From positions 26,953 through 90,952 of the forward strand of contig JBBECS010000054.1 in assembly GCA_040881685.1 (NCBI GenBank): DNA of 64,000 nucleotides, read 5' to 3'. A program made the position numbers and the translations under genes. This document shows positions 15,553 through 40,109 of this stretch, in pieces. Every line of letters starts with the position of its first letter. Positions within the stretch are counted from its first letter, which is position 1. The stretch comes from Acidimicrobiia bacterium. GTDB taxonomy: Bacteria; Actinomycetota; Acidimicrobiia; IMCC26256; PALSA-555. The notes under the pieces were generated by a model, which saw nothing but the letters and a program-made list of their open reading frames with translations, was not told the origin of the DNA and did no database searches.

Positions 15553-16749
15553 TCACCGGTGCTTCGTCCGATTGACCAGCCGCTTGAGCGGGTCTCGGAC
15601 GGTCCGCATGGCCACTCCCAACATGGGGAGGGGGTCGTCGAAAGCGAAGCTCGAGGTGGCTTCGTATCCGACGATGGAACGCAGCCACCGATGGACCGGG
15701 ATGTCATCCTCGCGAGCGGCGACGACGTCCTTCCAGGGTTTGCACCAGCGGGCGCCGATGAGCACCGGGCCAATCGGAGGTCGAGGGGTGCCCGTGAGGT
15801 CGGCGTAGACGAGCGCGGGGATGTTGACACCTGCCACGGCCCCCAGGTGGTGCCAGAGGTTGAAGCGCGGGTTGATCTCGAGCAACCAGAGGCGCCCCTC
15901 CGGATCGCGCTTGAAATCCGCCTTGGCCACACCCGTGAGACCGAGGGCATGTGTGACCTTCCGCCCGAGCTCCTTCACGTCGGTCTCGTCGGTGATCGTC
16001 ACCGCCGTCGACTCGCCGAACATGCGGGGCAGCGTCCTGATCTTCCGGCCCGTGAACTCGGCCACGATCTGGCGTCGATCGTCGATGTAGACGTGATAAC
16101 TCTCCACATGCGTCTCCCCACCGGGGATGAGCTCCTGGACCATCACGGTGGCACCGCGCGCCTCGAGACTGCCCCAGAGCTCCGCGAGCCCGCCGGCGTC
16201 GGGTACCTCGAGGGCCTTGGCTGCGCCGGCGACCGACCTCCAGAGTTCGTCCATGTGCCGGCATGGCTTCACGACGACCGGGAACCGAAGTGCCCGCAGA
16301 TCGAGGTCGGAGACGCCGGGAGCCAGCACCTCAGCGCGCGGCACCGGAAGGTCGTGAGTCCGCGCCACCGCTCCGAGGCGGGCCTTGTCGATGAGAACCT
16401 CGACGAGATCGGCGCTCGGAACCACGAACCGAAAGCCTTCCTGCAACCGTTCTCGGTGCCGCGAGATCATGAGAAGTTCGGGATCCCCTTGGTAGAAGAG
16501 AACCGGCGGCAACTTCTGCCGCCCAGCCCAGGCCGAGAGTCGCTCGACAAGGAGTTCCTGCTCGCTCCACGGATCGATGACCCAGTCGATCGCGTCTCGG
16601 CGAAACCGGGAGAAGCGGGGAGGCTTCCATCGCTGGGTGACGACAGCGCCGCGGATCCCGGCCAGAAAGAGTGGGCGGACGAGATCCATGTCACCGATCA
16701 CGCAGGCCTGTGTTCCCTCGGCTCCGCGGCGGGCGCCTGACCTAGCCAC
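15553..16749 (-). CDS. ATP-grasp domain protein (second one in the region)
   Basis: FPVVVKPCRH..., MVQELIPGGETHVESYHVYID..., LTGVAKADFKRDPEGRLWLLEINPRFNLWHHL. Start uncertain: GTG 16749 would overlap the PHP gene stop by 8 nt; the alternative is ATG 16689. Confidence 0.75.
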   Translation of the reverse strand: MARSGARRGAEGTQACVIGDMDLVRPLFLAGIRGAVVTQRWKPPRFSRFRRDAIDWVIDPWSEQELLVERLSAWAGRQKLPPVLFYQGDPELLMISRHRERLQEGFRFVVPSADLVEVLIDKARLGAVARTHDLPVPRAEVLAPGVSDLDLRALRFPVVVKPCRHMDELWRSVAGAAKALEVPDAGGLAELWGSLEARGATVMVQELIPGGETHVESYHVYIDDRRQIVAEFTGRKIRTLPRMFGESTAVTITDETDVKELGRKVTHALGLTGVAKADFKRDPEGRLWLLEINPRFNLWHHLGAVAGVNIPALVYADLTGTPRPPIGPVLIGARWCKPWKDVVAAREDDIPVHRWLRSIVGYEATSSFAFDDPLPMLGVAMRTVRDPLKRLVNRTKHR

Positions 16750-17452
16750 TCCTGCCTGCCAACTCCAACGCCTTGTGCTTGACGAAACGCCGAGCCTGGT
16801 AGCCGACGACGCGCGGCCGCCGGCGCTTCCATCCGTAGATCGCCTCGGCCACGGCGACGTCACTCGTGCGAGTCGGCACCGGGACGGGACAGGTCGCATC
16901 GGCTCGGAGCACGACCAGCGGATCCGGGCCGTCCGGATAGTCGACGAACCAGCGAGCCTCGCGCTTCAGATGGGCGTCGGATCCGAACGCGACCGCCTTA
17001 CCGTGGCGCGCGCAGAGCTCGATCGCCTCGCGATTCTCCTCGCGGTTGCAACGCGAGTTGAACACCTCGATCACGTCGGCGCCCGCGGCCAGCTCCTCGA
17101 TCTCCTTGTGGCTCCGGTATGGGTGAGGCAGCCAGACCATGGCCCCGTACTCGCGAGCGAGGACTCGGAGCGAGCGCCACGTCTTCAGATCGGACACCGG
17201 AGGGACCTCCTCCGAGGGGAACACCACGATCACGTCGCCGAGATCGGTACGAATCTCCGCGGCGACGGGCACGATCAGGGGCAGCCCCTGCCTCCCCACG
17301 ATCGACCGTGCCTCGAGGCTCCCGGCGAAGGAGTCGTGGTCGGTGATCATTGCCAGGTCGACAGCGTTGGCCCGCAGCACCCGGAGCAAGACAGGTACCC
17401 GGAGTCGGCTGTCCCAGGAATGACGCGTGTGGATGTGGGTGATCGCTCGCAT
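16742..17452 (-). CDS. PHP-domain metal-dependent phosphoesterase
   Basis: MRAITHIHTRHSWDS...LAMITDHDS...VWLPHPYR...FGSDAHL are the His/Asp metal-ligand clusters of the PHP fold. ATG 17452 abuts the upstream stop (17453-55) with no spacer. Confidence 0.75.
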   Translation of the reverse strand: MRAITHIHTRHSWDSRLRVPVLLRVLRANAVDLAMITDHDSFAGSLEARSIVGRQGLPLIVPVAAEIRTDLGDVIVVFPSEEVPPVSDLKTWRSLRVLAREYGAMVWLPHPYRSHKEIEELAAGADVIEVFNSRCNREENREAIELCARHGKAVAFGSDAHLKREARWFVDYPDGPDPLVVLRADATCPVPVPTRTSDVAVAEAIYGWKRRRPRVVGYQARRFVKHKALELAGRSG

Positions 17453-18628
17453 CTACTCGTTGCTCAAGCGCTCCCCGTGGAGCGTCTCAGGACGCCGGGT
17501 GGGTTCCGCCGCCGGCGAACGCCGGACGCGCCGGTGGCGCCGCCGGAGCGACCGGGCGGCGCGGGTCCGCCCACGGTCGAGGCGGCCAGGGACGCCTCGT
17601 CTCGAGAGCATGGCGGCGAGCAACGTGCGCTCGCCGTTCGCCCATCGTCGTTTGTATTCCTGCCCCCCGCGCATGAAGTCGACCTCGGTAATCCCTCGCT
17701 GCAACGCGTCCGCGATGGCGCGATGGTTCACGAGCTGACCGGGGCTGAACTCGCCGTAGTCGGGGTCGAACGCGCCCTTGAGCATGTAGAGCCGCGAGCG
17801 GTACTCCAGATCGAGCTCGACGGCGATCGGGCGCCCGTCGGCGCTGAGGGTCAGGAGCCGGGTGCGGCCGACGATGTCCAGGGCACGGATGGCATCGAGG
17901 AGGAAGCGCTCCGACGCGGGGTCGGCCAGCAAACCCTGGAGGCGATCGGTCTCCCCCGCCCACCGCCGACGGTGGACCTCGAGGAACGCGTCGAGGCCGG
18001 CCTCCAGACGCCCGTGGGTGTGGTGCTCGAAGACCACCTCTCGATGTCGCTCCTCGAGCCGCCGGAGACGCTGGCCGATCTTGTGCCGCTTCGCCGCCTT
18101 GCGCAGGTCGAACCCGGCGGTTGCGTCCGTGTACGGGCACGAACCGTCGAGCGGCACCTCCGAGTAGCCGATCCCCGGAACGCCGCGAAGGCTGCGGCGC
18201 AGGAACTCGACGAAATGACTGTCGGCCACCAGTCGCGAGAAGACCACCGGGTGTCCCCGGCTCGTGGCGACCTCCTCGAGGTGGCCAAGCAGCAACGCCA
18301 CCGCCTCCTCCTCGCGCCGCACCAGGACGATGCCTCCATAGTCACCCGCGTCGTGGCTCACCGACTCGAAGAAGGTGCCGACCACGGGGCCCACGCCCAC
18401 GCGCGAACGCATCAACGGGGCAGTCGCCACGAGATCGTCGCGCTCCCACATGGTGATGACGTGCAACTGCGCCGCGGCCCCGAAATGCTCCCACCACGTC
18501 CGCAACCACTCCCACGTCAGGAACACGTTGGCATCGACGCTCGCGTCGCACGCCGCGTTCCACGGCGCGCGCAATCGATCGAACTCCGCGACATCGCTCA
18601 CGACGCGCAGCTCGAGCGGGGTACTCAT
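17453..18628 (-). CDS. CelD/BcsL / FemAB-like GNAT-fold acyltransferase, paralogue A
   Basis: MSTPLELRVVSDVAEFDRLRAPWN...NVFLTWEWLRTWWEHFG...LEVHRRRWAG...EVDFMRGGQEYKRRWANG. This pattern matches the ~380-aa Acetyltransf_6-type family as I remember it. It has a 14-aa longer, R-rich C-terminus than B and C. Confidence 0.75.
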   Translation of the reverse strand: MSTPLELRVVSDVAEFDRLRAPWNAACDASVDANVFLTWEWLRTWWEHFGAAAQLHVITMWERDDLVATAPLMRSRVGVGPVVGTFFESVSHDAGDYGGIVLVRREEEAVALLLGHLEEVATSRGHPVVFSRLVADSHFVEFLRRSLRGVPGIGYSEVPLDGSCPYTDATAGFDLRKAAKRHKIGQRLRRLEERHREVVFEHHTHGRLEAGLDAFLEVHRRRWAGETDRLQGLLADPASERFLLDAIRALDIVGRTRLLTLSADGRPIAVELDLEYRSRLYMLKGAFDPDYGEFSPGQLVNHRAIADALQRGITEVDFMRGGQEYKRRWANGERTLLAAMLSRRGVPGRLDRGRTRAARSLRRRHRRVRRSPAAEPTRRPETLHGERLSNE

Positions 18629-18632
18629 GTGT

Positions 18633-19766
18633 TCACCGCCCTAACCGCGAAGCACCCGACGGCGAAAGCCGGAGCCGCCGTTGCAGCGACCGGGCGATAC
18701 GAAGCCGCTGGCGGTCGGATCGCCCCGCCAGTCCAGCACGCGTGAGTGTCGCGGCAACCAAGGTCCGCTCACCGTTGGCCCACCCTCGCTTGTACTCCTG
18801 TCCGCCGCGCATGAAGTCGTACTCGGTGACACCGCGCTGCATTGCGTCTTCGATCGCCCGTTTGCGCAGCAGCCAGCCCGGGCTGAACTCGGCGAACTCC
18901 GGGTCGAACGCGACCTTGAGCATGTAGAGGCGTGCGCGGTACTCCAGGTCGAGCTCGACCGCGATCGGGCGCCCGTCGGCGGTCAACGTCAGGAGTCGTG
19001 CACGACCGATCTGGTCAAGGGCTCGGATCGCGTCGAGGAGGAACTGCTCCGACGCCGGATCTGCCAGAAGCCCCCGGAGGCGATCGGTCTCCCCCGCCCA
19101 CCGCCGACGGTGGACCTCGAGGAACGCATCGAGACCGGCCTCCAGGCACTCGTGGGTGCGGTGCTCGAAGACCACGTCGGGGTGGCGCTCCTCGAGTCGC
19201 CGGAGCCGCTGCGTGACCCGGTGCTTCTTCGTCAGCTTCTCGAACTCGAAGCCGGCGGTGAAGTCGATGAACGGACATGCACCGTCGAGCGGCACCTCCG
19301 TGCAAGCGAGCGTCGGCACCGAGGCCAGTCGCCGTCGCAGGTGCTCGACGAACCGGCTGTCGGCCACGAGCCGCGAGAGCAGCACCGGGCTACGCCGACT
19401 CGTCGCCACGTCCTCAAAGTGCGCGAGCAGCAATGCCACTGCTTCCTCCTCGCGCCGCACCAGGACGACGCCGCCATAGTCGCCGGCGTCGTGGCACACC
19501 GACTGAAACAGCGTGCCCTCCACCGGCCCCACGCCGACCCGCGAACGCATCAATGGCGCCGCCGCCACGAGCTCATCGCGCTCCCACAGCGTCACCACGT
19601 GCAACTGCGCCGCGGCCCCGAAATGCTCCCACCACGTCCGCAACCACTCCCACGTCAGGAACACGTTGGCATCGACGCTCGCGTCGCACGCCGCGTTCCA
19701 CGGCGCGCGCAATCGATCGAACTCCGCGACATCGCTCACGACGCGCAGCTCGAGCGGGGTACTCAT
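18633..19766 (-). CDS. CelD/BcsL / FemAB-like GNAT-fold acyltransferase, paralogue B
   Basis: Its first ~55 aa are identical to A. Residues ~56-180 and the C-terminal tail (SLQRRLRLSPSGASRLGR) are identical to C. A 4-nt spacer separates it from the start of A. Confidence 0.75.
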   Translation of the reverse strand: MSTPLELRVVSDVAEFDRLRAPWNAACDASVDANVFLTWEWLRTWWEHFGAAAQLHVVTLWERDELVAAAPLMRSRVGVGPVEGTLFQSVCHDAGDYGGVVLVRREEEAVALLLAHFEDVATSRRSPVLLSRLVADSRFVEHLRRRLASVPTLACTEVPLDGACPFIDFTAGFEFEKLTKKHRVTQRLRRLEERHPDVVFEHRTHECLEAGLDAFLEVHRRRWAGETDRLRGLLADPASEQFLLDAIRALDQIGRARLLTLTADGRPIAVELDLEYRARLYMLKVAFDPEFAEFSPGWLLRKRAIEDAMQRGVTEYDFMRGGQEYKRGWANGERTLVAATLTRAGLAGRSDRQRLRIARSLQRRLRLSPSGASRLGR

Positions 19767-19770
19767 GTGT

Positions 19771-20901
19771 TCACCGCCCTAACCGCGAAGCACCCGACGG
19801 CGAAAGCCGGAGCCGCCGTTGCAGCGACCGGACGACGCGGAGCCTCTGGCGGTCCCGGCGACCAGCCGGCCCGGCGCGCGTGAGCGTCGCCGCGACCAAG
19901 GTCCGCTCACCGTTGGCCCACCGCCGCTTGTACTCCTGTCCGCCGCGCATGAAGTCGTACTCGGTGACATCGCGCTGCAATGCGTCTTCGATCGCCCGCT
20001 TCCGCAGCAGCCAGCCGGGACCGTACTCGGCGAACTCAGGATCGAACGCGACCTTGAGGTTGTAGAGGCGCGCGCGGTACTCGAGGTCGAGCTCGACCGC
20101 GATCGGACGCTGCCCGGCATTGAGGCTGAGGAGCCGTACCCGGCCGATGCAATCGAGGTTCCGGATGGCATCGAGGAGGAAGCGCTCCGACGCCGCATCG
20201 GCGAGCATGCCGCGGAGACGCTCGGTCTTTCCGGCCCAGCGTCGTCGGTGGACGTCAAGGAATGCCTCGAAACCGGCGTCCAGACGCGCACCGGTGTGAT
20301 GCTCGAAGCACAAGTCGCGATGTCGCTCCTCGAGGCGCCGGAGAAGCCGCGGGATATCCCGCTTCTTCGTCAGCTTCTCGAACTCGAAGCCGGCGGTGAA
20401 GTCGATGAACGGACATGCACCGTCGAGCGGCACCTCCGTGCAAGCGAGCGTCGGCACCGAGGCCAGTCGCCGTCGCAGGTGCTCGACGAACCGGCTGTCG
20501 GCCACGAGCCGCGAGAGCAGCACCGGGCTACGCCGACTCGTCGCCACGTCCTCAAAGTGCGCGAGCAGCAATGCCACTGCTTCCTCCTCGCGCCGCACCA
20601 GGACGACGCCGCCATAGTCGCCGGCGTCGTGGCACACCGACTGAAACAGCGTGCCCTCCACCGGCCCCACGCCGACCCGCGAACGCATCAATGGCGCCGC
20701 CGCCACGAGCTCATCGCGCTCCCACAGCGTCACCACGTGCAACTGCGCCGCGGCCCCGAAATGCTCCCACCACGTCCGCAACCACTCCCACGTCAGGAAC
20801 ACGTTGGCATCGACGCTCGCGTCGGCCGCCGCGTTCCACGGCGCGCGCAATCGATCGAACTCCACGACATCGCTCACGACACGCAACTCGAGCCGGTTCA
20901 C
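19771..20901 (-). CDS. CelD/BcsL / FemAB-like GNAT-fold acyltransferase, paralogue C
   Basis: Starts at GTG 20901 (VNRLELRVVSDV), overlapping the stop of the GNAT gene (GTGA). The middle third is the most divergent part (KKRDIPRLLRRLEERHRDLCFEHHTGARLDAGFEAFLDVH). Confidence 0.75.
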   Translation of the reverse strand: MNRLELRVVSDVVEFDRLRAPWNAAADASVDANVFLTWEWLRTWWEHFGAAAQLHVVTLWERDELVAAAPLMRSRVGVGPVEGTLFQSVCHDAGDYGGVVLVRREEEAVALLLAHFEDVATSRRSPVLLSRLVADSRFVEHLRRRLASVPTLACTEVPLDGACPFIDFTAGFEFEKLTKKRDIPRLLRRLEERHRDLCFEHHTGARLDAGFEAFLDVHRRRWAGKTERLRGMLADAASERFLLDAIRNLDCIGRVRLLSLNAGQRPIAVELDLEYRARLYNLKVAFDPEFAEYGPGWLLRKRAIEDALQRDVTEYDFMRGGQEYKRRWANGERTLVAATLTRAGPAGRRDRQRLRVVRSLQRRLRLSPSGASRLGR

Positions 20902-22049
20902 CGGTCGGAGCCTCTCACGTCGTCGGAGCGGGCTCCCCCGGCCGCAGGACTGGCGGTGCCCCATTCGAGGTCGCTGTCGCCCGCGGTGAGGAGCCAGCTC
21001 CGTCGCCTCGACAGCGCGGATCGCAACTGCTCATCGCCATCGGAGAAGCGGACCATGAACCGGATGGGCGGGTCGGGACCGCGCTGGAACCGCCGGAACG
21101 CCATGGAGCGCAAGAGTCGGTCAGCCGACTCGTTGAGGGTCTTGCAGACTACGGCCACTGCCCCCTTCGCCCTGGCGTGGTCCGCGACTCGCGTGAAGAG
21201 CGGGACGACCCAGCCCGGCGCCACCAGATAGTCCACGATGAGCGCCACCCGCTCGTCACTCCACGCCGTGAAGCGAACCACGGCGTATCCGACCACCCGC
21301 CCACGCCGGACGAGGTAGAAGCGATGGTGCCGGGTCCGGTCGGGTCGCTGGTCCCATCGCCAGCGCAGCGTCGGGGCGTCGCGCACCGCGAGGACCTGAT
21401 AACGAGGCGCGACTACCTCCCACAGATCGTCGGCTCGCTCGTCGAAACGCTCGATCGACTCGAGCCGCGCGGCCGCCAGCCGGGTAAGGGAACCGTGCAC
21501 GGCACCGACGGCCGCGAGGGCGGGTGTCGCAACCGCAGCCGCCGGCCGGCGCCAGCGCTCCGGGACGGGGCTGACCGACAGGGCACGGCGCGCGACAAGC
21601 GGACGCACGTAGACGGGAACGATGCCGAGGTCGGTCCATCCCCCTCGCAGATACGCTCGATACCCCTTCTCGGAAATGTTCAGGCCGCCCACGATGTGGT
21701 TCACGTCGAGCTGGGCCTCGACCAGCGCGGGACCGACGCCGCGCAGCCGCCACGCGGGATCGACCATCAGGTCGATGGCCCAGGCCGCGCGACACGTGCG
21801 ATCGCCGACTTTGAGCTCGAACGGGATCTCGGCCTGTTGGCCGACCACGGCGCCGTCGCGGCGACAGATCCAGAGGCCCGGGCCGTCAGGCAAGCGACAG
21901 GGGTTCCGGTCGAACAGCCAGGTGGACCGGTCGGGGTCGATCTGGCGTGACCCCGGTCCGAACATCCGCAGCTGGAAGTCGCGCAGCGCGTCCCGATCGT
22001 TGTCGACATAGCGAGTGATGCCCGCGCGGGCGCGCGTGGCAAAGCTCAT
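20898..22049 (-). CDS. GNAT-family N-acyltransferase (two GNAT-like halves)
   Basis: AAWAIDLMVDPAWRLRGVGPALVEA is the R-x-x-G-x-G/A acyl-CoA motif A. The second half has YLVRRGRVVGYAVVRF...VDYLV. ATG 22049 overlaps the upstream stop (ATGA). Confidence 0.7.
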   Translation of the reverse strand: MSFATRARAGITRYVDNDRDALRDFQLRMFGPGSRQIDPDRSTWLFDRNPCRLPDGPGLWICRRDGAVVGQQAEIPFELKVGDRTCRAAWAIDLMVDPAWRLRGVGPALVEAQLDVNHIVGGLNISEKGYRAYLRGGWTDLGIVPVYVRPLVARRALSVSPVPERWRRPAAAVATPALAAVGAVHGSLTRLAAARLESIERFDERADDLWEVVAPRYQVLAVRDAPTLRWRWDQRPDRTRHHRFYLVRRGRVVGYAVVRFTAWSDERVALIVDYLVAPGWVVPLFTRVADHARAKGAVAVVCKTLNESADRLLRSMAFRRFQRGPDPPIRFMVRFSDGDEQLRSALSRRRSWLLTAGDSDLEWGTASPAAGGARSDDVRGSDR

Positions 22050-23044
22050 GACGCTCCCGAAGAGACTTCGACGTGCTCGACGAGGAGCGCGTCGCGCAGC
22101 CCGCGTTCCGCGGCGTGGCGCTTCGCCACGATGTCACGGAAGACCCGCTCGACCTGTTCGATGGTAAGCCCGACGACACGTCCGGCTTCAACCGCGGGGA
22201 CACGATGCTCCCACGCGTAAAGCATGAGGTCCATCTCCGCGTACGGCAGCGCGAAGTAGAACTCCTCCTGGGTCTGGGGCAAGCTGTACGTGTCCGTGGT
22301 CGGGGGTTGGTCGCGAATCTCCTCGGGGATGCCGAGGTAGGCCGCCAGTGCGTAGACCTGTGTCTTGTAGAGGTGCGCGATGGGCTTGAGATCGGCGAGC
22401 CCGTCGCCACCCCGCACGAAGAACCCCAGCTCGTACTCGAGTCGGTTCGGTGTCCCGAGTACCGCATAGTTGCGTGACTCCGCGTGGAAGTACTCGATGA
22501 GCTTACGCGTCCGCTGTTTCATGTTCGTTGCCGCGACGACTTCGAGGTACACGTCGGTCGGCATGCGTCGGGTCGATCGGTCGCCCGAGGGCGACTCCAC
22601 GGTAAGGGTGAAGTAGCTGACGCGATCGCGGTCGAGCAGTCCCTCGGCGAGCGCGACCTTCTGGCGGTACCCGGCTCCGTAGTCGGAAAACAGACGGCGG
22701 ATCGCCTCGTCACGCCGCTCGTAGCAACCGAGCGCGGCAAGCGCGGGGCCGATGTCCTCGAGAACGGACGTGATGCCGAAGTGCTCGCAGAGCGCCCGCC
22801 CCCGGGCCGTGCTGCCGTCGGCAGTGTCGGCCTCGGGCATCAGGAGGGCGACGACTCGATCGGCGCCGAACGCACGTGCCGCGAGCGCGGCGCACACGGC
22901 CGAGTCGACGCCGCCGCTCACGCCGACCGCGACCCCGCGACGGTTCAACGTGCGAGACACGGCCTGCAGCATCGCCGCTTCGATGGCGGACGCCACGCGG
23001 GCGCCATCGATGTCGAGAACACTGCGGTCGAACGACGTGCTCAT
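22046..23044 (-). CDS. NAD+ synthetase-like PP-loop ATP pyrophosphatase (NadE family paralogue)
   Basis: VAVGVSGGVDSAVCAALA is the SGGxDS PP-loop; PTTDTYSLPQTQEEFYFALPYAEMDLML is a NadE-type C-terminal substrate region. ATG 23044 overlaps the AsnB stop (ATGA). Confidence 0.8.
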   Translation of the reverse strand: MSTSFDRSVLDIDGARVASAIEAAMLQAVSRTLNRRGVAVGVSGGVDSAVCAALAARAFGADRVVALLMPEADTADGSTARGRALCEHFGITSVLEDIGPALAALGCYERRDEAIRRLFSDYGAGYRQKVALAEGLLDRDRVSYFTLTVESPSGDRSTRRMPTDVYLEVVAATNMKQRTRKLIEYFHAESRNYAVLGTPNRLEYELGFFVRGGDGLADLKPIAHLYKTQVYALAAYLGIPEEIRDQPPTTDTYSLPQTQEEFYFALPYAEMDLMLYAWEHRVPAVEAGRVVGLTIEQVERVFRDIVAKRHAAERGLRDALLVEHVEVSSGAS

Positions 23045-25113
23045 CGGGGAAATCCTCCACCGTCGGGGACCGAGGATCCGGTGTGGGCTTGCCCATCGCG
23101 CTGCTCGGCGCGATCCTCGCCGGAATGATCCTCGAGCACGCACAGGTGTGCGTGCTCGAGTCGACGTCGACCATCGCGGGCCCGCTGCCGGAAGCCGTCG
23201 AAGAATGCTTGGCCGAGCAACTGCAGCGTGAGAAGCCCGACCAGTGCCATCTCCTCGCGCTCACCTGACATCCGGCCGTCGCTGCGCGTCGCTTTCGCGA
23301 CCAAGTGCGCGGCTGCCGTCGGGTCCACCAGCCCGAGGCGCGCGATGTTCGCGGGAGACACCAGCGCACGGATGTACTCTGGCATGTCGGGGCCGAAGAG
23401 CGCGGTCGTCATCGGCGCGCGATAGGGCATCTTGGGACGTCGCCAGATCTCGGGGGGCAGGGAGCGTGACGCGAGGCGTCTGAGCGTCACCTTGTCCCGG
23501 AGCGCCGGCATCTTGAGCCGGGTCGGCAGACCGGAGCAGAACTCGACCACGCCAGGGTCGAGGAACGGATACCGGACCTCCACACCGTGCGCCATCGCGA
23601 CGCGGTCGCCCTGGTACGAGAGCAGGTACGACGAGAGGAAGCTGTGGATCTCGATCCACTGCGCTCGTGCGAGTGGCGTCAACGCGTTCCAGTCAGCGGG
23701 CAGCTCCTTCTCGGCCGCTCGGTTCATCGCGTCGAGGTCGATGCTCCCTCGCAGATCGGGTGAGAGCACGCGCGTCGACCAGCCCGTGTTCCGCCATCGG
23801 ATCAGGTGAGAGTAGAAGGGATGGTCCGTATCGGTCAGCCCGCGGCCGAAGAATCGCTGCCAGAGCTGGCTGTCCCTCGCTCCGGCCGCGGCCACCTCCG
23901 GATGGAGCCGGGCGAGCAACGCGGGGCGCAGCGCCGAGTCGGGCTGCCGGGCCCAGAACCGGCGCACCTTGTCCTCCTTGAAGATGCTGTAGCCCGCCAG
24001 CAGCTCGTCGGCGCCTTCGCCGGTCAACACCACTTTCATGCCCGCCGCGCGCACGAGTCCGGACAGCAGGAACAGCGGCACGGGCGCAGTCCGTAGGAGC
24101 GGTGCCTCGCAATGCCACACGACGTCCTCCAGCGCGTTCTGGATCTCGGGCGCGCCGCAGACGATCTCGTGGTGTTCCGTGCCGAGCTTCGTGGCCATCC
24201 GGCGCTGCTCGGCCGTTTCGTCGAACGCAGGATCGGCGAAGCGCACGGCGAAGGTCTGGAGTGGGCTCCGATCTGCACTCCGCGCGAGGTCGGCGATCAC
24301 CGACGAGTCCAGACCGCCACTGAGGTACGCGCCTACGGGCACGTCGGCCCGTAGCCGCAGGTCGACGGCATCGGAGAGTTGGTCGCCGAGACGATCTGCG
24401 GCTTCGTCGAGTGTGAGGTCGCGAAGCGTCGCGTTCTCGGCGAGATCTGCTGCCCAGTAGCGATGGGATCGTTCCGTCAGGTCGCTGTCGATGGACAGCG
24501 CGGTTCCGGGCGGCACCGAGCGGACGCCCGCGAAGACGGTGTGGGGCGGTGTCGTGGACCAGCGCGTGAACACCTCGGCGAGGCCGTTGGCGTCGATCTC
24601 GGGTTCGAGGTCGTCGCACGCAAAGAGTGCCTTCACCTCCGACCCGAACAGCACTCGGCGGGCCGACCGCGCGTAGTGAAGGGGCAAGATCCCGAGACGG
24701 TCTCGAACGAGCCAGAGGAGCCGGCGGCGGGCGTCCCAGAGCGCGAACGCGAACTGACCATTGAGCATCGTCCAGGCGCGGGGGCCGAAGCGCTCGTAGC
24801 AGTGGACGATCACCTCGGAGTCTCCGTCGGTGTAGAAGCGGTGACCGAGGCTTGCCAACTCACGGCGGAGCTCCAGGTAGTTGAAGATCTCGCCGTTGAA
24901 GGACAGCCAGATCGTGCGGTCCTCGTTGTGAATCGGCTGAAATCCCCCCGCCAGGTCGATGATGCTCAGCCGCGCGTGCGCCAACCCGACCCGATCGTCG
25001 CGATACAGACCGTAGCCATCGGGTCCACGATGCCCGAGCATCGCGATCATCCGGCGAAGGTCCTCCAAGGACACCGGCCCGGATCCTGCCAGGATGCCGG
25101 CGATTCCACACAT
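23041..25113 (-). CDS. Asparagine synthase (glutamine-hydrolysing) family amidotransferase
   Basis: MCGIAGIL provides the Cys2 nucleophile. Also HRGPDG, LSIIDL, FNGEIFNY, and AYLSGGLDSS (the PP-loop of the synthetase domain). Confidence 0.9.
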   Translation of the reverse strand: MCGIAGILAGSGPVSLEDLRRMIAMLGHRGPDGYGLYRDDRVGLAHARLSIIDLAGGFQPIHNEDRTIWLSFNGEIFNYLELRRELASLGHRFYTDGDSEVIVHCYERFGPRAWTMLNGQFAFALWDARRRLLWLVRDRLGILPLHYARSARRVLFGSEVKALFACDDLEPEIDANGLAEVFTRWSTTPPHTVFAGVRSVPPGTALSIDSDLTERSHRYWAADLAENATLRDLTLDEAADRLGDQLSDAVDLRLRADVPVGAYLSGGLDSSVIADLARSADRSPLQTFAVRFADPAFDETAEQRRMATKLGTEHHEIVCGAPEIQNALEDVVWHCEAPLLRTAPVPLFLLSGLVRAAGMKVVLTGEGADELLAGYSIFKEDKVRRFWARQPDSALRPALLARLHPEVAAAGARDSQLWQRFFGRGLTDTDHPFYSHLIRWRNTGWSTRVLSPDLRGSIDLDAMNRAAEKELPADWNALTPLARAQWIEIHSFLSSYLLSYQGDRVAMAHGVEVRYPFLDPGVVEFCSGLPTRLKMPALRDKVTLRRLASRSLPPEIWRRPKMPYRAPMTTALFGPDMPEYIRALVSPANIARLGLVDPTAAAHLVAKATRSDGRMSGEREEMALVGLLTLQLLGQAFFDGFRQRARDGRRRLEHAHLCVLEDHSGEDRAEQRDGQAHTGSSVPDGGGFPR

Positions 25114-25155
25114 GACGCTCGTGCCCCGTTCCGGCCCTTCTCCCAGGTGTCGGCT

Positions 25156-26688
25156 CTACGCCTGGGAGAGCGCGGACCTCTTGATCTTGCCAGACTCGGT
25201 CTTGGGCAACGACTCGCGGATCTCGACCAGCTTCGGCACTCTGGAGGTTTCCAATCGGTCGCGGCAGTGGAGCCGGACCTGCTGGTCCGTGAGCGTCACC
25301 CCATCGCGTGGCACGACCGTCGCTTTGATCGCCATCCCCTCCACGGGGTCCGGGACCCCGACGACGGCGGCCTCGCTCACGGCCTCCAACTCGTAGAGGA
25401 CGTTCTCGATCTCCTTGGGGCTGATCTTCTCGCCCCGACACATGAACATGTCGTCCGTGCGGCCGACGAAGTAGAGAAGCCCTTCGTCGTCCATCCGGAA
25501 CTGGTCGCCCGTGTGAAGAACCTTCTCGCCCGAGATCTCACCGTCGCGTAGCCGCTCCGCGGTCTCCTCCGGCTTCCCCCAATACCCGCGCATGACGTTC
25601 GCACCGCGGACGACGAGCTCACCGACCTCACCCGGCGGCACGCGATGACCGTACTCGTCGACGATGTACACCTCTGTGTTCGGCATGGCCGTGCCAACCG
25701 ACGAGATCTTGTCCGTGAGTCGAGCCGGATCCAAGTACGACACACGCGTGCACTCGGTGAGTCCATACATGGAGAAGATGTCGGCCTGGGGAAACAACTC
25801 CTGGAGGCGACGAATGTGCGCCGGCGCGATGGGCGCCGCGGCGTTCGTGAGGTATCGAAGGTGGGAGAGATCGAGGTCGTCGAACGGCGCCACTTGGACC
25901 ATCGCCGCGAACATTGCAGGCACTCCGGGAAAGCCCGTGACTCGGTATTGCGCGACCCGGTGCATCACATCGCGTGGATACGCGAAGGATCGCTCGATGA
26001 GCACCGCGTAACCGACTCGCGCTCCCGCGAGCACCTGGAAGAGCCCGTAGCTGAACGCCATTGGCAGTGCGCACACCACGACATCGTCGGGCACGTTGGC
26101 GAGGTACGTCGAGATCGCCCACGCGTTGTTGCGCATCGTACGGTGGGTGAGCATCACTCCCTTCGGATCACCCGTGGTTCCCGATGTGTAGATGATGGCG
26201 CCGAGATCGGCGTCGATGAGACCAGGAGTCGCCACCGGGCTCGCAGGCGCCTGCATCACCTCCTCGAACGCGAGCCCGAACGGGGCCCCGGCCGGGAGCC
26301 CGCCGATCCAGATGGCGGCGCCGACGGTCGGCGCGGCGACCAGCGCGGGGACGATCACTCGGGCGATCCGCGAGTGAACCACCAAACAGCTCACGCCGCA
26401 CTGGCTCAAGATGTAGGCAAGCTTGTGCGCCTTCATGGTCGGGTTCACCGGCACGAACACACCGCCGGCCTTCAGGATGCCGAACAGAGACACCACCAGC
26501 TCAGGCGAGTTCTCGAGCATGACGGCAACCCGGTCGCCGCGGCGTATCCCGGCGCTTTGCAACGCGCAGGCGAGGCGGTCGCTCTCGCGATCGATCGCGG
26601 TGAAGCTGTGCACGTACCCGTCGGCGATGAGGGCGGTTGCGCCCGGGCGACGCGCCACGGCCTCAGCGAGAAGGTCGTGGACTAGGAT
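25156..26688 (-). CDS. AMP-forming adenylating ligase (acyl/aminoacyl-carrier-protein ligase, DltA/acyl-CoA synthetase superfamily)
   Basis: IIYTSGTTGDPKGVMLTHR (A3 core), FSMYGLTE, LHTGDQFRMDDEGLLYFVGRTDDMFMCRGEKISPKEIE (A8), PKTESGKIKR (A10). The 5' end is unresolved because there is no ATG/GTG/TTG/CTG at the expected N-terminus (see findings). The first canonical start is GTG 26658. Confidence 0.85.
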   Translation of the reverse strand: MLVHDLLAEAVARRPGATALIADGYVHSFTAIDRESDRLACALQSAGIRRGDRVAVMLENSPELVVSLFGILKAGGVFVPVNPTMKAHKLAYILSQCGVSCLVVHSRIARVIVPALVAAPTVGAAIWIGGLPAGAPFGLAFEEVMQAPASPVATPGLIDADLGAIIYTSGTTGDPKGVMLTHRTMRNNAWAISTYLANVPDDVVVCALPMAFSYGLFQVLAGARVGYAVLIERSFAYPRDVMHRVAQYRVTGFPGVPAMFAAMVQVAPFDDLDLSHLRYLTNAAAPIAPAHIRRLQELFPQADIFSMYGLTECTRVSYLDPARLTDKISSVGTAMPNTEVYIVDEYGHRVPPGEVGELVVRGANVMRGYWGKPEETAERLRDGEISGEKVLHTGDQFRMDDEGLLYFVGRTDDMFMCRGEKISPKEIENVLYELEAVSEAAVVGVPDPVEGMAIKATVVPRDGVTLTDQQVRLHCRDRLETSRVPKLVEIRESLPKTESGKIKRSALSQA

Positions 26689-26996
26689 GCGGTTCCCTCC
26701 ACGTCGGCACGATGACCGGCTCCGTGTACGAGCTGGCGGTCGACGAACGTCGCCAGTCGCTCGACCGAGTCCAGGTTGTCGGCGATGAGATCTTCCTCGT
26801 CGATCTCGAGCGCGAAGGTCTCCTCCAAGAAAGCCACGATCTCCATGACGCCGGTCGAGTCGATGACGCCGGACTCGATCAGTGAATCCGCGTCGCCAAA
26901 TCCGTCGTCGTCCCCGAACAGGAAGCTCTCGACGATGTACGCGTGGATCCGCGCCGCCGTACCGAGCTCGTAACCTCCGTCCGGCGAATTGGTCAA
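26682..26996 (-). CDS. Acyl/peptidyl carrier protein (DltC-like phosphopantetheine attachment site)
   Basis: DSLIESGVIDSTGVMEIVAFLEETFALEI matches the carrier-protein helix II with the Ser attachment site (G-x-x-D-S). TTG 26996 is preceded by GAGGAGAGG 8 nt upstream. Confidence 0.75.
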   Translation of the reverse strand: MTNSPDGGYELGTAARIHAYIVESFLFGDDDGFGDADSLIESGVIDSTGVMEIVAFLEETFALEIDEEDLIADNLDSVERLATFVDRQLVHGAGHRADVEGTAS

Positions 26997-27179: not shown

Positions 27180-27512
27180 ATGCCCGGACCGAAGTCGAGA
27201 CTCGAGCGCATGGCCAGGGTGCTGAACCGGGCGGCGATCGTGCTCCTGGTGCTCTTCGTCGGTGCCGCCATCGGTGCTGTGCAGTACGTCGACACCGAGT
27301 TCGAAGGCAACGTGAGCGTCTTCCGGTACCTGCTGACCATCGCCACGGCGGCTCCACTGCTCGTCGCCGCAATCGTCGCGTGGGTCGGGAGCGTCATCGT
27401 TCGAGCCCTCGGCCGCGTGCGGGGAAGCCTCCTCGACGCGCTGCTGCGCGACGAGGAGGACCCACCAGAGCAGCTGGCGCCTGGCTCCGACCTGACCCCG
27501 ATCGGCCGCTAG
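27180..27512 (+). CDS. Small two-TM membrane protein
   Basis: ATG 27180 lies 4 nt after AAGGAGGAGG. AAIVLLVLFVGAAIGAV and LLTIATAAPLLVAAIVAWVGSVIV are hydrophobic helices. Transcribed divergently from the big operon. Confidence 0.5.
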   Translation: MPGPKSRLERMARVLNRAAIVLLVLFVGAAIGAVQYVDTEFEGNVSVFRYLLTIATAAPLLVAAIVAWVGSVIVRALGRVRGSLLDALLRDEEDPPEQLAPGSDLTPIGR

Positions 27513-27714
27513 CGCCGCAACTCGGCGGCCACCGGTCGCGGAGGCTCGACGGGCTCCCCGAGGTCGATTTCTTGTGGCCCGCGGCAGATCCTTCAGACGT
27601 GGCCCGCGTCTGGGTGTACGCGACGTGGCGTCGCCGCGTTCCCCGGCGCGAACTCTCGAGCGGCGCAGCGCGCGCCCGCCGGTCGCGGGAGTGGTCGCGT
27701 GGGCGGGAATCTGC

Positions 27715-27726
27715 GATTGTACAATC
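27715..27726. promoter_or_regulatory. Perfect 12-bp AT-rich palindrome GATTGTACAATC containing a TACAAT -10-like hexamer
   Basis: GATTGTACAATC (27715-27726) equals its own reverse complement. TACAAT is at 27720-25. AGGAGG (27745-50) and the GGDEF start GTG 27755 follow. Confidence 0.3.
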
Positions 27727-27754
27727 ACAGGTTCTTCCCCCCTTAGGAGGTTCG

Positions 27755-28624
27755 GTGGCCGAGCGCAGCGGTCCGATCGGGCTGGCCTCGGTCGTGCCGA
27801 CGCCGGTCGAGCCACTCGACGGGCCCAGGGTGAACGCGGCTCCCGACAGCGCTGGGAGCTCCCGGGTCGTGAGGCTCGGGGCGCAGCTCTCTGCTGATAT
27901 CGCTGTCACCGAATCTGGGATCGCGCTCATCTACCGTGCGCTCGACCGGCTCGTCGACGAGCTCGGCCTCGAGGACGCCGCGCTCGTCGTCGATGACGCC
28001 GAACTCGGGCGGCAGGTGTTTCGCGCCGGGCGCCGCGGGCTGCGGGAAGACGAGATGCGCCTCATCGACCTGCCGTCCGGGCTCTACACCTCGCCGCCCA
28101 TGCCGGACACGAGCTTCGACGCCTCGCTGCTCGCGAGCCTCTCGCTCGTCGCCCTGCGCCTCGACTTGCAGCGCCACGACTCGGCCCACGACCCGCTGAC
28201 CGGGCTGTACACGCGGGGAACGTTCACTCGCCTGCTCAACACCGCGATCGCGCGGAGCCGCCGGCTTGGATGGCGGTTCGCGCTGGTGCTCGTCGATCTC
28301 GACGATCTGAAGTCGGTGAACGACAAGTATGGACATCCGGCCGGTGACGCGGCCTTGCGCGCCCTCGCCCAGTACCTGCGAACGGCACTCCGGCTCAGCG
28401 ACGACGCCGCCCGCATTGGGGGAGACGAGTTCGCCTTGATCCTTCCCGAGACGGATGCCGAGCAGGTCGCGCGGCTCTTCGAACGGATCGACACCGATGA
28501 CGATCAACCGGTACCGCGATTCTCCTACGGCGCGGCGATCTGCCCGACCGATGCCACCGACTCGGATGAGCTCCTCGCGCTCGCGGACCAGCGCCTGTAC
28601 GACGCGAAGCGACGGCGGGCATGA
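27755..28624 (+). CDS. GGDEF-domain diguanylate cyclase
   Basis: DPLTGLYTRGTF...LVLVDLDDLKSVNDKYGHPAGDAALRAL...ARIGGDEFALILPE, with an intact GGDEF motif. GTG 27755 lies 4 nt after TAGGAGG. The N-terminal ~115 aa are unassigned. Confidence 0.85.
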   Translation: MAERSGPIGLASVVPTPVEPLDGPRVNAAPDSAGSSRVVRLGAQLSADIAVTESGIALIYRALDRLVDELGLEDAALVVDDAELGRQVFRAGRRGLREDEMRLIDLPSGLYTSPPMPDTSFDASLLASLSLVALRLDLQRHDSAHDPLTGLYTRGTFTRLLNTAIARSRRLGWRFALVLVDLDDLKSVNDKYGHPAGDAALRALAQYLRTALRLSDDAARIGGDEFALILPETDAEQVARLFERIDTDDDQPVPRFSYGAAICPTDATDSDELLALADQRLYDAKRRRA

Positions 28625-30387: not shown

Positions 30388-31986
30388 TCACGCGCCCGCC
30401 CGTCGCCGGACCGCCCCGGTCGCCGTCGATCGAGCCGATCTCGCATCACCAGAGCGCCCGACGATGTAGGTTTCGATTCCTTCGATCGCCGGGTCACGCC
30501 GGGATGACACGCCGAGGTGTGCCTCAAGCGCTCGGCGCGCGGGAACAGGGTCGCCGTCCCGCCGGTCGACGATAACTACAACATCGGCCTCGTCGCGCGC
30601 GCCGATGATCCGATCCAGTTGCCGCAACGCAGCGTTCTCAGTCCTTCGGCGGGGGAAAACGACCGTGGGACAGCCCGAGTACCACCGGATCTGCGGACCC
30701 CGGAAGTTGCTGATCACCACGCAGTCGCTTCTGAGGGAAGCGCTGAGCGCGAGCCCAGCGTGCCGAGTTCGTTCGTGACCGTCTCGCTGGCCGAGGTCAT
30801 GGACCATGAGGGCGGAGAGGCTTGCGATCGCTATCACGACGAACACAGTTACGGCCTTCTTCCATATACCACGCGGCACGCGGCACGTCAGCTCCGACAG
30901 GCCGAATGCACCGGCGATCACGAAATAAGGGACGGCAAGACTGAGATACCTGGACTCACCGTGATTCAACGTCATCGCGAGAAGGAAGACGGTCGCGAAC
31001 CCGGTCGCGATCGGGACCACGAAGCCCTCCTCCACGCGCTTCTCCCGGACCGACCGGATGGCGCCGAGAACCAGACCGACCACCATGACCGAGAAGAACA
31101 CGTAACCGAGCAACAGGGACGTCTTCCCCAGACTCGCCGCGCCGAGGTAGCCGGGCAGCTGTCGGGCGAAGTCGGTGAACGATTGAAACGCCTCGAATTC
31201 AGCGGTCTGCGGAAGGCTGTAGGCCGCGATGTACGGAGACTCGTCTGATCCGGTCAACCACGGAACGAAGAGGATGGCAGCGGCCGAACCGGCGATGCCG
31301 ACCGCCAGGAGGGCGATTCGCCTGAGAAGCTGGCGTGTCGTGCGCCATCGGTAGAGCAGGATCGCGGCGCAGCCGACCGCGATCGGGATGGGTGATCCGA
31401 ATCGGACGTACGTCGCAACGATCGACAGCGGTATCGCCCAGTAGATCCACCGTCGTACACGACCGTCAGCCGTGCCATAGGCCACGACGCACATCACGCC
31501 CATGGAGAGCACCGCGCCCGGGACGTCCGGCCACAAGTACGTGCTGGAACGGAGATACCCCGGGCACAGGGCGAGGAGCACTGCGGCGAGCAGTGCCACC
31601 CGTTCACCCGCCAGCTGACGCGCGAGCAGCCAGGTGACGACAATGCCTGCGGCACCGAACGCCAGCACGACGACGTGCATTGACAGTTCGCTGTCTCCCA
31701 CCACGACGCCCGCCGTGAGGGCGGCGGGGAACCCGGGTGCACGGAGATCGTGCCAGAAGCGATCTGGGCTCGTGCCGTCGACCATGTCGCGCGCGCGCTG
31801 CGCGTACACGGACTCATCGGTTCCCAATGGCGGTTCGCTCGAGACCCACGCGATGCCGATCGCGAGGAATCCGACGACGAGTGCCGCCAGGATCACCGCG
31901 GGGTAAGCGGCAATGCGTGCAAACGAGCGGTCGCCCCCGGCTTGCTCCGATGTTGCGTCTCGAACTGCGACGCTCATCGGCACCAT
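30388..31986 (-). CDS. GT-C fold membrane glycosyltransferase (ArnT/PMT/GT39-GT83-like, polyprenyl-phosphate-sugar dependent)
   Basis: A 532-aa polytopic protein. After TM1, the first extracytoplasmic loop carries PPLGTDESVYAQRARDM, an acidic D-E motif in the usual GT-C position. There is a C-terminal soluble domain of ~130 aa. Confidence 0.65.
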   Translation of the reverse strand: MVPMSVAVRDATSEQAGGDRSFARIAAYPAVILAALVVGFLAIGIAWVSSEPPLGTDESVYAQRARDMVDGTSPDRFWHDLRAPGFPAALTAGVVVGDSELSMHVVVLAFGAAGIVVTWLLARQLAGERVALLAAVLLALCPGYLRSSTYLWPDVPGAVLSMGVMCVVAYGTADGRVRRWIYWAIPLSIVATYVRFGSPIPIAVGCAAILLYRWRTTRQLLRRIALLAVGIAGSAAAILFVPWLTGSDESPYIAAYSLPQTAEFEAFQSFTDFARQLPGYLGAASLGKTSLLLGYVFFSVMVVGLVLGAIRSVREKRVEEGFVVPIATGFATVFLLAMTLNHGESRYLSLAVPYFVIAGAFGLSELTCRVPRGIWKKAVTVFVVIAIASLSALMVHDLGQRDGHERTRHAGLALSASLRSDCVVISNFRGPQIRWYSGCPTVVFPRRRTENAALRQLDRIIGARDEADVVVIVDRRDGDPVPARRALEAHLGVSSRRDPAIEGIETYIVGRSGDARSARSTATGAVRRRAGA

Positions 31987-32061
31987 CGAATCATGAACGG
32001 CACCAACAGTCTCTACGACAACGAGAGTCTCGCCACGGGGGCCTCGGGCTCTGATTTCTCG

Positions 32062-33366: not shown

Positions 33367-33401
33367 GGAAGCCTCTTCTTACGCTCCGAGATACGCGGGG
33401 G

Positions 33402-34841: not shown

Positions 34842-35543
34842 GTGCGGGCGGTGATCACCCAGTCCAACTACATCCCCTGGAAGGGGAGTTTCGACGTCTT
34901 CGACCGCGCAGACGTCGTCGTCCTGTACGACGACGTGCAGTACACCCGGCGTGACTGGCGGAACCGCAACAAGATCAAGACTGCCCAGGGACTGAAGTGG
35001 GTCACCGTTCCGGTGAGCGTCAAGGGTCGCTACGAGCAGAAGATCAACGAGGTCGAGATCTCCGACCCCGCGTGGGCGAAGAGCCACTGGGGCTCGATCA
35101 CCGGCGCCTACGCCGAGGCTCCGCACTTCTCCACGTATCGCGACCGCCTGCTCGCCCTCTACGAGCAGGCCTCGAAGTTGACGATGCTCTCGAAGATCAA
35201 CCACCTCATGCTCACCGAGGTCAGTCGGTGGCTCGGCATCGACACCGCCTTCCACTGGTCGACGGAGTTCGCCGCGGCGGGTGCACCGACCCAAAGGCTC
35301 GTCAACCTCTGTCGTGAGCTCGGGGCGACGAGCTACCTCACCGGCCCGGCTGCGAAGTCGTACCTCGAGGTCGACGAGTTCGAACACGCCGGGATCACCG
35401 TCGAGTGGATGGACTACTCGCACTACCCGCCGTACCCCCAGCTCCACGGGCAGTTCGAGCCAGCGGTCAGCGTCGTCGACGTGCTACTCAATTGTGGCAA
35501 CGACGCGCCCAACTTCATCCTCGGGAGGAATCTTGAGCACTGA
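34842..35543 (+). CDS. WbqC-like family protein (copy 2, GC-rich)
   Basis: (V/M)RAVITQSNYIPWKGSFDVFDRADVVVLYDDVQYTRRDWRNRNKIKT...WVTVPV. It is colinear with copy 1 over its whole length. Start is GTG 34842. Confidence 0.8.
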   Translation: MRAVITQSNYIPWKGSFDVFDRADVVVLYDDVQYTRRDWRNRNKIKTAQGLKWVTVPVSVKGRYEQKINEVEISDPAWAKSHWGSITGAYAEAPHFSTYRDRLLALYEQASKLTMLSKINHLMLTEVSRWLGIDTAFHWSTEFAAAGAPTQRLVNLCRELGATSYLTGPAAKSYLEVDEFEHAGITVEWMDYSHYPPYPQLHGQFEPAVSVVDVLLNCGNDAPNFILGRNLEH

Positions 35544-39930: not shown

Positions 39931-40109
39931 CACACTGCTCCTTCCGATGGTGGACAGGCATCCTAGGGTGTCGTGGTTGCCCTCGCGGGCGTGAACGACA
40001 GCTTGATGGACGCCAGGGGAGGCGGATTGATGGTGTCCTGGGGCCAGGCGGGAATGAAGGGTCGCGAGTTTCCGCCGAGCGACGTGTTCGGCCCGCTGTC
40101 GACCCGACG

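Follow-up and report, generated by a model that had tools for sequence, protein, structure and literature searches.

A carrier protein, ligase and two-amidotransferase module beside tandem-GNAT genes in an Acidimicrobiia polysaccharide locus: a candidate route to envelope polymer acylation

What task could a stand-alone carrier protein and an adenylate-forming ligase have in an operon that also encodes a series of GNAT-fold transferases? The question is raised by a 64,000-nucleotide stretch of contig JBBECS010000054.1 from an Acidimicrobiia bacterium (hereafter the window; G+C approximately 68%). The initial annotation of positions 17453 to 26996 had described a Dlt-like carrier protein and ligase followed by five GNAT-fold transferases, and had speculated that an acyl- or aminoacyl-S-carrier protein is the donor for the FemAB-like ones. 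Gene calls made by third-position GC analysis and open reading frame (ORF) listing upheld the genes and their arrangement in a single minus-strand operon, and changed the gene list and count. The reading developed below, to which we give an even chance of being correct, is that an acid is bound to the carrier protein and amidated there, the GNAT proteins then passing it on to a polymer of the cell surface. Gene content, module conservation, fusions and the GNAT370 fold were computed; the substrate, the order of the steps and the acceptor are what we infer from them.

The operon and its four-gene module

Eight minus-strand genes occupy positions 17453 to 26996:

26682-26996, minus strand: carrier protein, 104 aa, TTG start (PF00550, 23.4 bits)
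25156-26658, minus strand: adenylate-forming ligase, 500 aa, public gene call P0001 (PF00501, PF13193)
23041-25113, minus strand: AsnB-type glutamine-dependent amidotransferase, 690 aa (PF13537, PF13522, PF00733)
22046-23044, minus strand: NadE-like PP-loop ATP-pyrophosphatase with SGGVDSA motif, 332 aa (PF02540; PRK00876 subfamily)
20898-22049, minus strand: tandem-GNAT acyltransferase "GNAT370", 383 aa here, from a family of approximately 370 aa (PF00583, PF13527)
19771-20964, minus strand: CelD/FemX-like paralogue 3, true start probably downstream of 20964 (PF13480, 105.6 bits)
18633-19766, minus strand: CelD/FemX-like paralogue 2, 377 aa (PF13480, 128 bits; Mig-14, 25 bits)
17453-18628, minus strand: CelD/FemX-like paralogue 1, 391 aa (PF13480, 112.8 bits)

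The title of the initial annotation had left out the AsnB-type and NadE-like genes that lie between the ligase and the transferases. Pfam bore out one dual-GNAT protein and three CelD-like Acetyltransf_6 paralogues; the GNAT-superfamily proteins number four rather than five, each of them a tandem GNAT. The minus-strand gene run continues unbroken from 26996 to at least 9177, with gaps of 0-40 nt or overlaps of 4 nt, one such overlap joining the NadE-like start to the AsnB-like stop.

The carrier protein, the ligase, the AsnB-like and the NadE-like protein form a conserved unit. Loci were fetched by ligase alignment, and those with ligases at least 40% identical and enough contig (L001-L016) were set against those at most 37% identical. 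AsnB-like and NadE-like genes adjoin the ligase gene in all 13 of the closer relatives, with the carrier protein present in nearly all and the gene order variable; neither gene neighbours the ligase in any of the 67 more distant loci. The closer relatives include Nitrospirota, Chelativorans, Caldimonas, Aquabacterium, Cellvibrio, Ferruginibacter, Actinomycetes, Gaiellaceae and Holophagaceae. Counting from the NadE side gave a similar picture: of the metagenomic loci, 14 extend 5 kb or more to both sides, and these contained a carrier protein (12 loci), a ligase of this family (11) and an AsnB gene (11). Since this neighbourhood recurs across phyla, the arrangement is not due to chance. By synteny, the obligate partners of the carrier protein and ligase are the two amidotransferases, which had been missed as such.

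The genomic setting of the module varies. On pSymB of Sinorhizobium meliloti 1021, asnB-ACP-ligase-nadE (ACP, acyl carrier protein) makes up a stand-alone operon next to and upstream of minCDE, at about 1,450,600-1,455,500. On Azospirillum plasmids the module ends an operon of glycosyltransferase and deacetylase genes, and in Phycisphaerae loci it likewise ends glycosyltransferase/deacetylase operons. An exhaustive search for NadE-like homologues returned approximately 326 clusters at 50% identity (E ≤1e-30). Some of the homologues are fused to other domains: P0312 joins a full ligase to a NadE-like domain; P0315 joins NadE-like to a 4'-phosphopantetheinyl transferase (PPTase), with a ligase gene adjacent; P0324 combines NadE-like with AMP-binding_C and PP-binding domains (A_sub-PCP; PCP, peptidyl carrier protein) and has an A-PCP protein, hydrolases and an Sfp-type PPTase as neighbours; in P0321 and P0453, NadE-like and AsnB domains are joined. 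On the transferase side, P0236 consists of a KR-ACP followed by a GNAT370-like domain. Some of these metagenomic fusions are possibly gene-call merges; two were checked in their contigs. The presence of several independent architectures ties both the NadE-like protein and the tandem GNAT to carrier-protein chemistry.

One related locus (L176, 6207-12594) has a layout resembling a nonribosomal peptide synthetase (NRPS). Besides an A-PCP protein, it encodes a protein of unusual domain architecture, with a NadE-like domain instead of an adenylation core ahead of AMP-binding_C and PCP; genes for a GDSL lipase, two alpha/beta hydrolases and an Sfp-type PPTase follow.

Searches of the literature on the gene set, on the S. 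meliloti pSymB genes and on PEP-CTERM accessory genes found no publication on a carrier protein-ligase-AsnB-NadE module, which is apparently widespread, mis-annotated and unstudied.

Carrier protein, ligase and amidotransferases

The carrier protein sequence includes DSLIESGVIDSTGVMEIV, and its predicted phosphopantetheine site is Ser47 within VIDSTG. All carrier protein homologues compared from related loci retain the (I/V)DS(T/M)G serine, with the exception of that of S. meliloti R14. There, the pSymB copy (CP130053.1; L172, 10130-10393) has Pro in its place (IIDPTGV), strain 1021 (L174) having IIDSTGV; the R14 gene may be a natural loss-of-function allele. The closest solved structures are stand-alone type II PCPs (2my5, PigG, PltL; E 7e-7), and the DltC chains in the PDB match much more weakly (E 0.025 or worse). 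The DltC model NF003464 gave 15.4 bits versus a cut-off of 68, which leaves the protein outside that family. An identity as OlsHI-ACP was rejected: this was the top NCBIfam match, yet it scored 47 bits versus a cut-off of 130. OlsH itself has been described as working without an ACP.

The ligase is predicted to be the loader of the carrier protein. Its top NCBIfam model was TIGR03098 (445.4 bits, below the cut-off of 592.35), followed by PRK06187-type and fatty-acid CoA ligases. DltA models were absent from the best 25 of 110 families, which places the ligase outside the DltA family as well. Its identity is 100% with P0001, a protein of an Acidimicrobiia metagenome-assembled genome (MAG), and approximately 60% with Azospirillum and Phycisphaerae proteins; the nearest PDB entries are the second A domain of LgrA and feruloyl-, fatty-acyl- and malonyl-CoA synthetases. 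The residue at what we take to be the equivalent of GrsA Asp235, located through motif A4, is Ser in the window. Read at this A4 position alone, 120 homologues had D (approximately 82), G (approximately 27) or S (approximately 6).

The AsnB-like translation contains an N-terminal Cys2 (MCGI) glutaminase and a SGGLDSS PP-loop. With 470 bits against TIGR01536 (cut-off 267) the protein is by sequence a member of the asparagine synthetase B family. The second-best NCBIfam model was TIGR03108 (407.5 bits, short of the cut-off of 816.9); TIGR03104, the NAGGN amidotransferase family, gave 340 bits, and the closest solved structure is the hydroxyamidotransferase 7ylz. The NadE-like protein lacks a glutaminase domain. 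It belongs by sequence to the NadE family, scoring 460.5 bits against NF002048 (PRK00876; cut-off 313). True NAD synthetases of solved structure match it at approximately 104 bits in two segments (query 64-133 and 204-343), and because the match is split in this way, approximately 70 residues are without counterpart in those enzymes. The context argues against a housekeeping role in converting nicotinic acid adenine dinucleotide to NAD, since the protein tracks the carrier protein, ligase and AsnB-like protein, occurs fused to ligase, PPTase and A_sub-PCP, and has the additional unmatched residues.

Could the locus simply encode an ordinary Dlt D-alanylation system, or housekeeping asnB and nadE genes beside an acyl-CoA ligase? 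The DltC-like DS(T)G motif points that way, and so do the names that PGAP gives to the S. meliloti and Azospirillum proteins, asparagine synthase for the AsnB-like and NAD(+) synthase for the NadE-like. As in the DltABCD and AlmEFG systems, a stand-alone adenylating ligase would load a small dedicated carrier protein, the donor to an envelope polymer. The likeness to DltC/DltA seen in the initial annotation extends to the DS(T/M)G motif and to the two proteins being stand-alone; it does not extend to the family level, the DltC model, the PDB ranking and the NCBIfam ranking of the ligase (TIGR03098 and CoA ligases) all being against it, and Dlt membership was therefore rejected. A Pfam scan of approximately 50 window proteins found no MBOAT or DltD, in agreement with what had been noted, and no exosortase or sortase; no LpxL-type AlmG was seen. 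Further differences from Dlt and Alm are that the obligate partners here are two amidotransferases and the transferases cytoplasmic tandem GNATs; from Dlt, that Ser replaces the amino-binding Asp of motif A4. Together with the unmatched residues of the NadE-like protein and its tracking of the carrier protein and ligase, these findings make the Dlt or housekeeping explanation scarcely credible.

The tandem-GNAT transferases

GNAT370 is predicted to be an N-acyltransferase with a carrier-protein-borne donor. Its AlphaFold2 model (pLDDT 90) is a tandem GNAT whose top PDB folds are N-myristoyltransferases (NMTs), and the donor-binding motif R101xxG104xG is invariant among database homologues. The three CelD-like proteins are members of PF13480 Acetyltransf_6 (105-128 bits). 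The FemAB family PF02388 matched paralogue 2 at 15.8 bits, versus a gathering score of 24, and the other two not at all, so that none of the three belongs to it; TIGR03019, the PEP-CTERM FemAB family, found neither the CelD-like proteins nor GNAT370 even at E up to 10. Comparison of a CelD-like protein with solved structures gave no sequence match. The likeness to FemX/FemAB and NMT enzymes consists in the tandem-GNAT fold, the NMT-like model of GNAT370 and the weak FemAB match of the CelD-like proteins, whereas identity is 11-14%, the TM score approximately 0.52 and FemAB below the Pfam cut-off. The proposed donor would also differ, being an acyl-S-carrier protein rather than tRNA or a CoA thioester.

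Paralogues 2 and 3 of the CelD-like group share 84% protein identity. At the DNA level approximately 400 bp of the 5' half are 100% identical and the 3' half is 72-90% identical; the first 200 bp are identical between paralogues 1 and 2. The genes look like mosaics that arose by gene conversion not long ago, the C-terminal Acetyltransf_6 domain being the part that diverged, and part of this pattern may come from mis-assembly of the MAG. All three proteins end in Arg-rich C-terminal tails. A GGDEF diguanylate cyclase gene (27380-28624, plus strand) lies divergent from the operon. Both features recall HfsK of the Caulobacter holdfast by description. HfsK is a FemX-like tandem-GNAT putative N-acyltransferase acting on polysaccharide; it is thought to re-acylate amines bared by the deacetylase HfsH, and its Arg-rich C-terminal tail binds cyclic di-GMP. 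By analogy with that tail, control of the CelD-like proteins by cyclic di-GMP is possible. Unlike the proteins discussed here, HfsK has no associated carrier protein.

A census of neighbours in 40 module loci found GNAT370 in nine and a divergent branch of approximately 373 aa in seven (homologous to GNAT370 by hhalign, probability 98.7%, E 1.7e-16), making this group, with 16 of 40 loci, the commonest flanking transferase. Other neighbours were PrmC/HemK-like methyltransferases, mostly NPPY (9/40), priming sugar transferases (8/40), Wzz/BY-kinases, epimerases and membrane-anchored, weakly SGNH-like proteins of approximately 290 aa (6/40 each), the exosortase EpsH (4/40) and FabH-like KASIII (3/40); polysaccharide deacetylases were also frequent. 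The PrmC/HemK family methylates amide or amino nitrogens, and for this reason the NPPY methyltransferases near the module fit a carboxamide product. These genes lie in or beside the module in at least nine loci, namely L010, L011, L015, L095, L103, L119, L132, L139 and L142; none occurs in the window.

Only some four of the 40 loci have CelD-like genes at a distance of at most 10 kb from the module: the window, L086, L085 (Acetyltransf_6, approximately 6 kb away) and L146 (a partial match). One apparent CelD cluster in related loci proved to be an antisense-ORF artefact and was discarded. The earlier focus on FemAB-like proteins was thus misplaced, the tandem GNAT of approximately 370 aa being commoner. 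CelD-like homologues of 45-55% identity and named source are from Acidimicrobiia or Acidimicrobiales, and several share a contig with GNAT370. In the Acidimicrobiia loci L086, L166 and L167 the GNAT370-CelD pair comes after the carrier protein module. L166 is a six-gene cassette, carrier protein-ligase-AsnB-NadE-GNAT370-CelD, between hom and lysA, with no glycosyltransferases; L167 has carrier protein-ligase-AsnB-CelD plus additional GNAT370, CelD, carrier protein and AsnB-like copies. At the same hom/lysA position, L169 (3894-11152) keeps the GNAT370-CelD pair, also encodes a 370-aa protein, and has as loader a DltA/NRPS-type ligase (FDLS, NLYGPTE) with a PCP, and as tailoring genes a formyltransferase and a luciferase-like oxygenase. 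Such a swap of loaders is what one would expect if the pair takes carrier-bound donors, and it fits the idea of an aminoacyl-S-carrier; the gene content of L169 suggests an N-formyl-aminoacyl-S-PCP. L171 has the pair without a carrier protein, L168 and L170 have CelD alone, and in all three no carrier protein-ligase genes were present within 10 kb of the CelD homologue. GNAT370 and CelD are therefore a transferase pair specific to the Acidimicrobiia lineage that is usually, not always, fed by a carrier protein.

Together, the synteny, the fusions (KR-ACP-GNAT370-like among them) and the layouts of L086, L166, L167 and L169 make a carrier-protein-borne donor for GNAT-fold transferases plausible. 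This part of the initial proposal stands, with the correction that CelD/FemAB-like proteins are not general partners of the carrier protein.

Might the transferases act instead on a peptidoglycan precursor of Acidimicrobiia, the FemX-like proteins drawing on an aminoacyl-S-carrier protein to add a residue of the side chain or cross-bridge, and the AsnB-like protein amidating that residue or diaminopimelate? LtsA/AsnB1 is a precedent for diaminopimelate amidation. The CelD-like proteins are distant FemX relatives, L166 and L169 lie between hom and lysA/argS with no glycosyltransferases, and L169 has an amino-acid-type ligase with a PCP. We consider this explanation very unlikely: the same module occurs in many Gram-negative exopolysaccharide (EPS) loci, that of the window lies inside a 40-kb polysaccharide locus, the FemAB Pfam score is below cut-off, and no mur or fem context was seen.

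A proposed pathway, its alternatives and the surrounding locus

On the reading set out at the start, the ligase would adenylate a small acid that has one or more additional carboxylates, be it a dicarboxylate or an acidic amino acid, and this acid would be thioesterified onto the phosphopantetheine arm at Ser47. By analogy, the AsnB-like enzyme with glutamine and the NadE-like enzyme with ammonia or another amine would each adenylate the tethered group, at a free carboxylate or at an amide oxygen, giving a carboxamide or a further amide derivative. The tandem GNATs (GNAT370 plus, in Acidimicrobiia, the three CelD/FemX-like paralogues) would carry the finished acyl group from the carrier protein to amino groups of the envelope polymer that the glycosyltransferases of the locus produce. 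A deacetylase may expose these amines, as proposed for HfsH/HfsK.

The carrier-based part of this scheme follows from the conservation of the module as counted from both the ligase and the NadE side, from the fusions and from the kept carrier protein serine. The role given to the transferases follows from the rank of GNAT370 among flanking transferases, its tandem-GNAT fold and its invariant RxxGxG. An envelope polymer is suggested as target because deacetylases, priming transferases, Wzz/BY-kinases and exosortases are frequent neighbours and the window operon runs into glycosyltransferase genes.

Amidation of a tethered acid has precedents. OxyD is an AsnB homologue that amidates a malonyl-ACP starter. 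In gladiolin biosynthesis, GbnA, GbnB and GbnC convert succinyl-ACP to succinamyl-ACP, the AsnB homologue GbnC amidating with glutamine, and malonamyl-ACP systems for glutarimides likewise amidate an ACP-tethered starter. Compared by architecture alone, the Gbn and OxyD systems resemble the present one in that a stand-alone carrier protein with a phosphopantetheine serine is encoded along with its own loader and an AsnB homologue that depends on glutamine. From this likeness we infer that the AsnB homologue here would amidate a carrier-bound acyl group. The differences are that the loader here is an adenylating ligase and theirs an acyltransferase, that a NadE-type partner is always present here, and that there is no polyketide synthase, the likely takers being GNATs in polysaccharide loci. 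The proposal would thus combine carrier-protein-dependent envelope modification with ACP-tethered amidation, each of a known kind.

Several observations weigh against this scheme. The core on S. meliloti pSymB is isolated, having neither a transferase nor a glycosyltransferase gene in its surroundings; in L084 a gene for a 291-aa membrane protein is all that comes after the core, and the L166 cassette lies among housekeeping genes. These stand-alone cores imply that the acceptor need not be a polysaccharide nor be encoded nearby. A GNAT370-type gene was not seen in approximately 24 of the 40 module loci, many of them on short contigs, and some of these have an SGNH-like or KASIII-like gene instead. 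The Asp235-equivalent residue of the ligase varies (D, G, S, N) and so does not point to one substrate class, and the scheme does not account for the need for two amidotransferases. The literature yielded no biochemical or genetic data on any module member. Finally, the glycan rather than the tethered acyl group could be the substrate of the AsnB-like and NadE-like enzymes.

The stand-alone core of S. meliloti pSymB and the lack of glycosyltransferases in L166 are also what one would expect if the product were a small metabolite, either free or attached to a lipid (for example an osmolyte, a lipoamino compound or an acyl-amino acid that has been amidated), with no glycan decoration and with the EPS setting secondary. 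The NRPS-like layout of L176, with its hydrolases, and the resemblance of the AsnB-like protein to the NAGGN family would agree with this. We regard a small metabolite as improbable in view of the repeated position of the module at the end of glycosyltransferase/deacetylase operons (Azospirillum, the window, Phycisphaerae) and beside exosortases, and of its co-transcription in the window with glycosyltransferases and a priming sugar transferase.

Action on the glycan would amount to two independent decorations travelling together: the carrier protein and ligase would provide the GNATs with a plain acyl or aminoacyl group, and the AsnB-like and NadE-like enzymes would modify the sugar itself, converting for example a uronic acid to a uronamide or an acetamido to an acetamidino group. 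Sugar amidotransferases thought to act so are known from O-antigen pathways (WbpS, PseA), and AsnB-family neighbours in EPS loci are widely taken to amidate sugars. The module does occur mostly in polysaccharide loci that also contain epimerases/dehydratases and deacetylases, and its AsnB-like protein resembles TIGR03108. The linkage to the carrier protein and ligase is, however, very tight across phyla and is kept where no sugar genes are nearby (S. meliloti, L166), and the fusions of NadE-like to ligase, PPTase and A_sub-PCP indicate carrier-protein chemistry. We therefore judge a pair of separate decorations to be rather unlikely.

The link to exosortase EPS loci, raised in the initial annotation, was borne out in part. 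TIGR03098 is the best model for the ligase and TIGR03108 the second best for the AsnB-like protein, and EpsH/EpsI genes lie beside the module in L002, L007, L085, L090 and L141. Against membership in the XrtA/PEP-CTERM set, the scores all fall below the curated cut-offs, TIGR03019 gave no match, the window has no exosortase and the class is actinobacterial. The absence of an exosortase from the window, as first noted, holds by Pfam and also by tblastn, the EpsH and EpsI proteins of L002 and L085 finding no match there. The TIGR03098 set is defined with a PLP decarboxylase and two hydrolases, and not with AsnB and NadE.

In its widest form the proposal is tentative: a widespread, unrecognised carrier protein pathway, S. 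meliloti 1021 and Azospirillum brasilense included, may have a tethered acid amidated by AsnB-like and NadE-like enzymes and delivered by NMT/FemX-like tandem GNATs to envelope polymers. If so, Fem-type transfer could proceed independently of tRNA and CoA, with an acyl- or aminoacyl-S-carrier protein as donor, and a NadE-family enzyme would act on a carrier-bound substrate. This NadE paralogue family would then count, together with its AsnB partner, among the tailoring enzymes linked to carrier proteins and no longer as part of primary metabolism. Confirmation of the donor would extend carrier-protein-dependent acyl transfer to tandem-GNAT (Fem/NMT-like) enzymes acting on surface polymers. The proposal offers a hypothesis for part of the long-unexplained exosortase/EPS accessory gene set, and it is directly testable because the module is present in the tractable S. 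meliloti 1021 (pSymB) and in Azospirillum spp.

Downstream of the transferases, the same operon continues with:

16742-17452, minus strand: PHP-family metallohydrolase (PF13263 and a weak NF038032 match), with a gap of 0 to CelD paralogue 1
15553-16899, minus strand: ATP-grasp ligase, start uncertain (PF15632)
3' of the ATP-grasp gene to 9177, minus strand: GT2, GT4, GT2 and GT4 glycosyltransferases and a Bac_transf priming sugar transferase (Pfam)

Other polysaccharide genes in the first 42 kb of the window encode an ArnC-like GT2, a DegT aminotransferase, a PMT_2 GT-C and two WbqC-like proteins, and are accompanied by genes for a hexapeptide acyltransferase, methyltransferases, a second ATP-grasp enzyme and HAD hydrolases; housekeeping genes fill the right third. 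A scan for promoters and terminators gave no signal above chance.

An Arn-like set lies at 30388-34403 and 41494-42129 (both minus strand) and comprises the polyprenyl-phosphate-sugar-transferase-like GT2, the DegT aminotransferase and the PMT_2/ArnT-like GT-C, together with a small EamA-like membrane protein. Its presence suggests that an amino sugar linked to a lipid is added on the outside of the cell, and the amine acceptor could come from there. PMT_2 genes also occur near the module in L084. The WbqC-like genes (PF08889, 224 and 247 bits) flank the polysaccharide locus at 1381-2166 and 34842-35543 (both plus strand), the latter being followed by the hexapeptide acyltransferase gene in an overlapping ORF. 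Four genes mark the edge of the glycan locus (36215-37141, plus; 38201-39139, minus; 39136-40197, minus; 40110-41489, plus). They include two paralogues with a weak GH130 match, a PhyH-family dioxygenase and an N,N-dimethylformamidase-beta-like protein.

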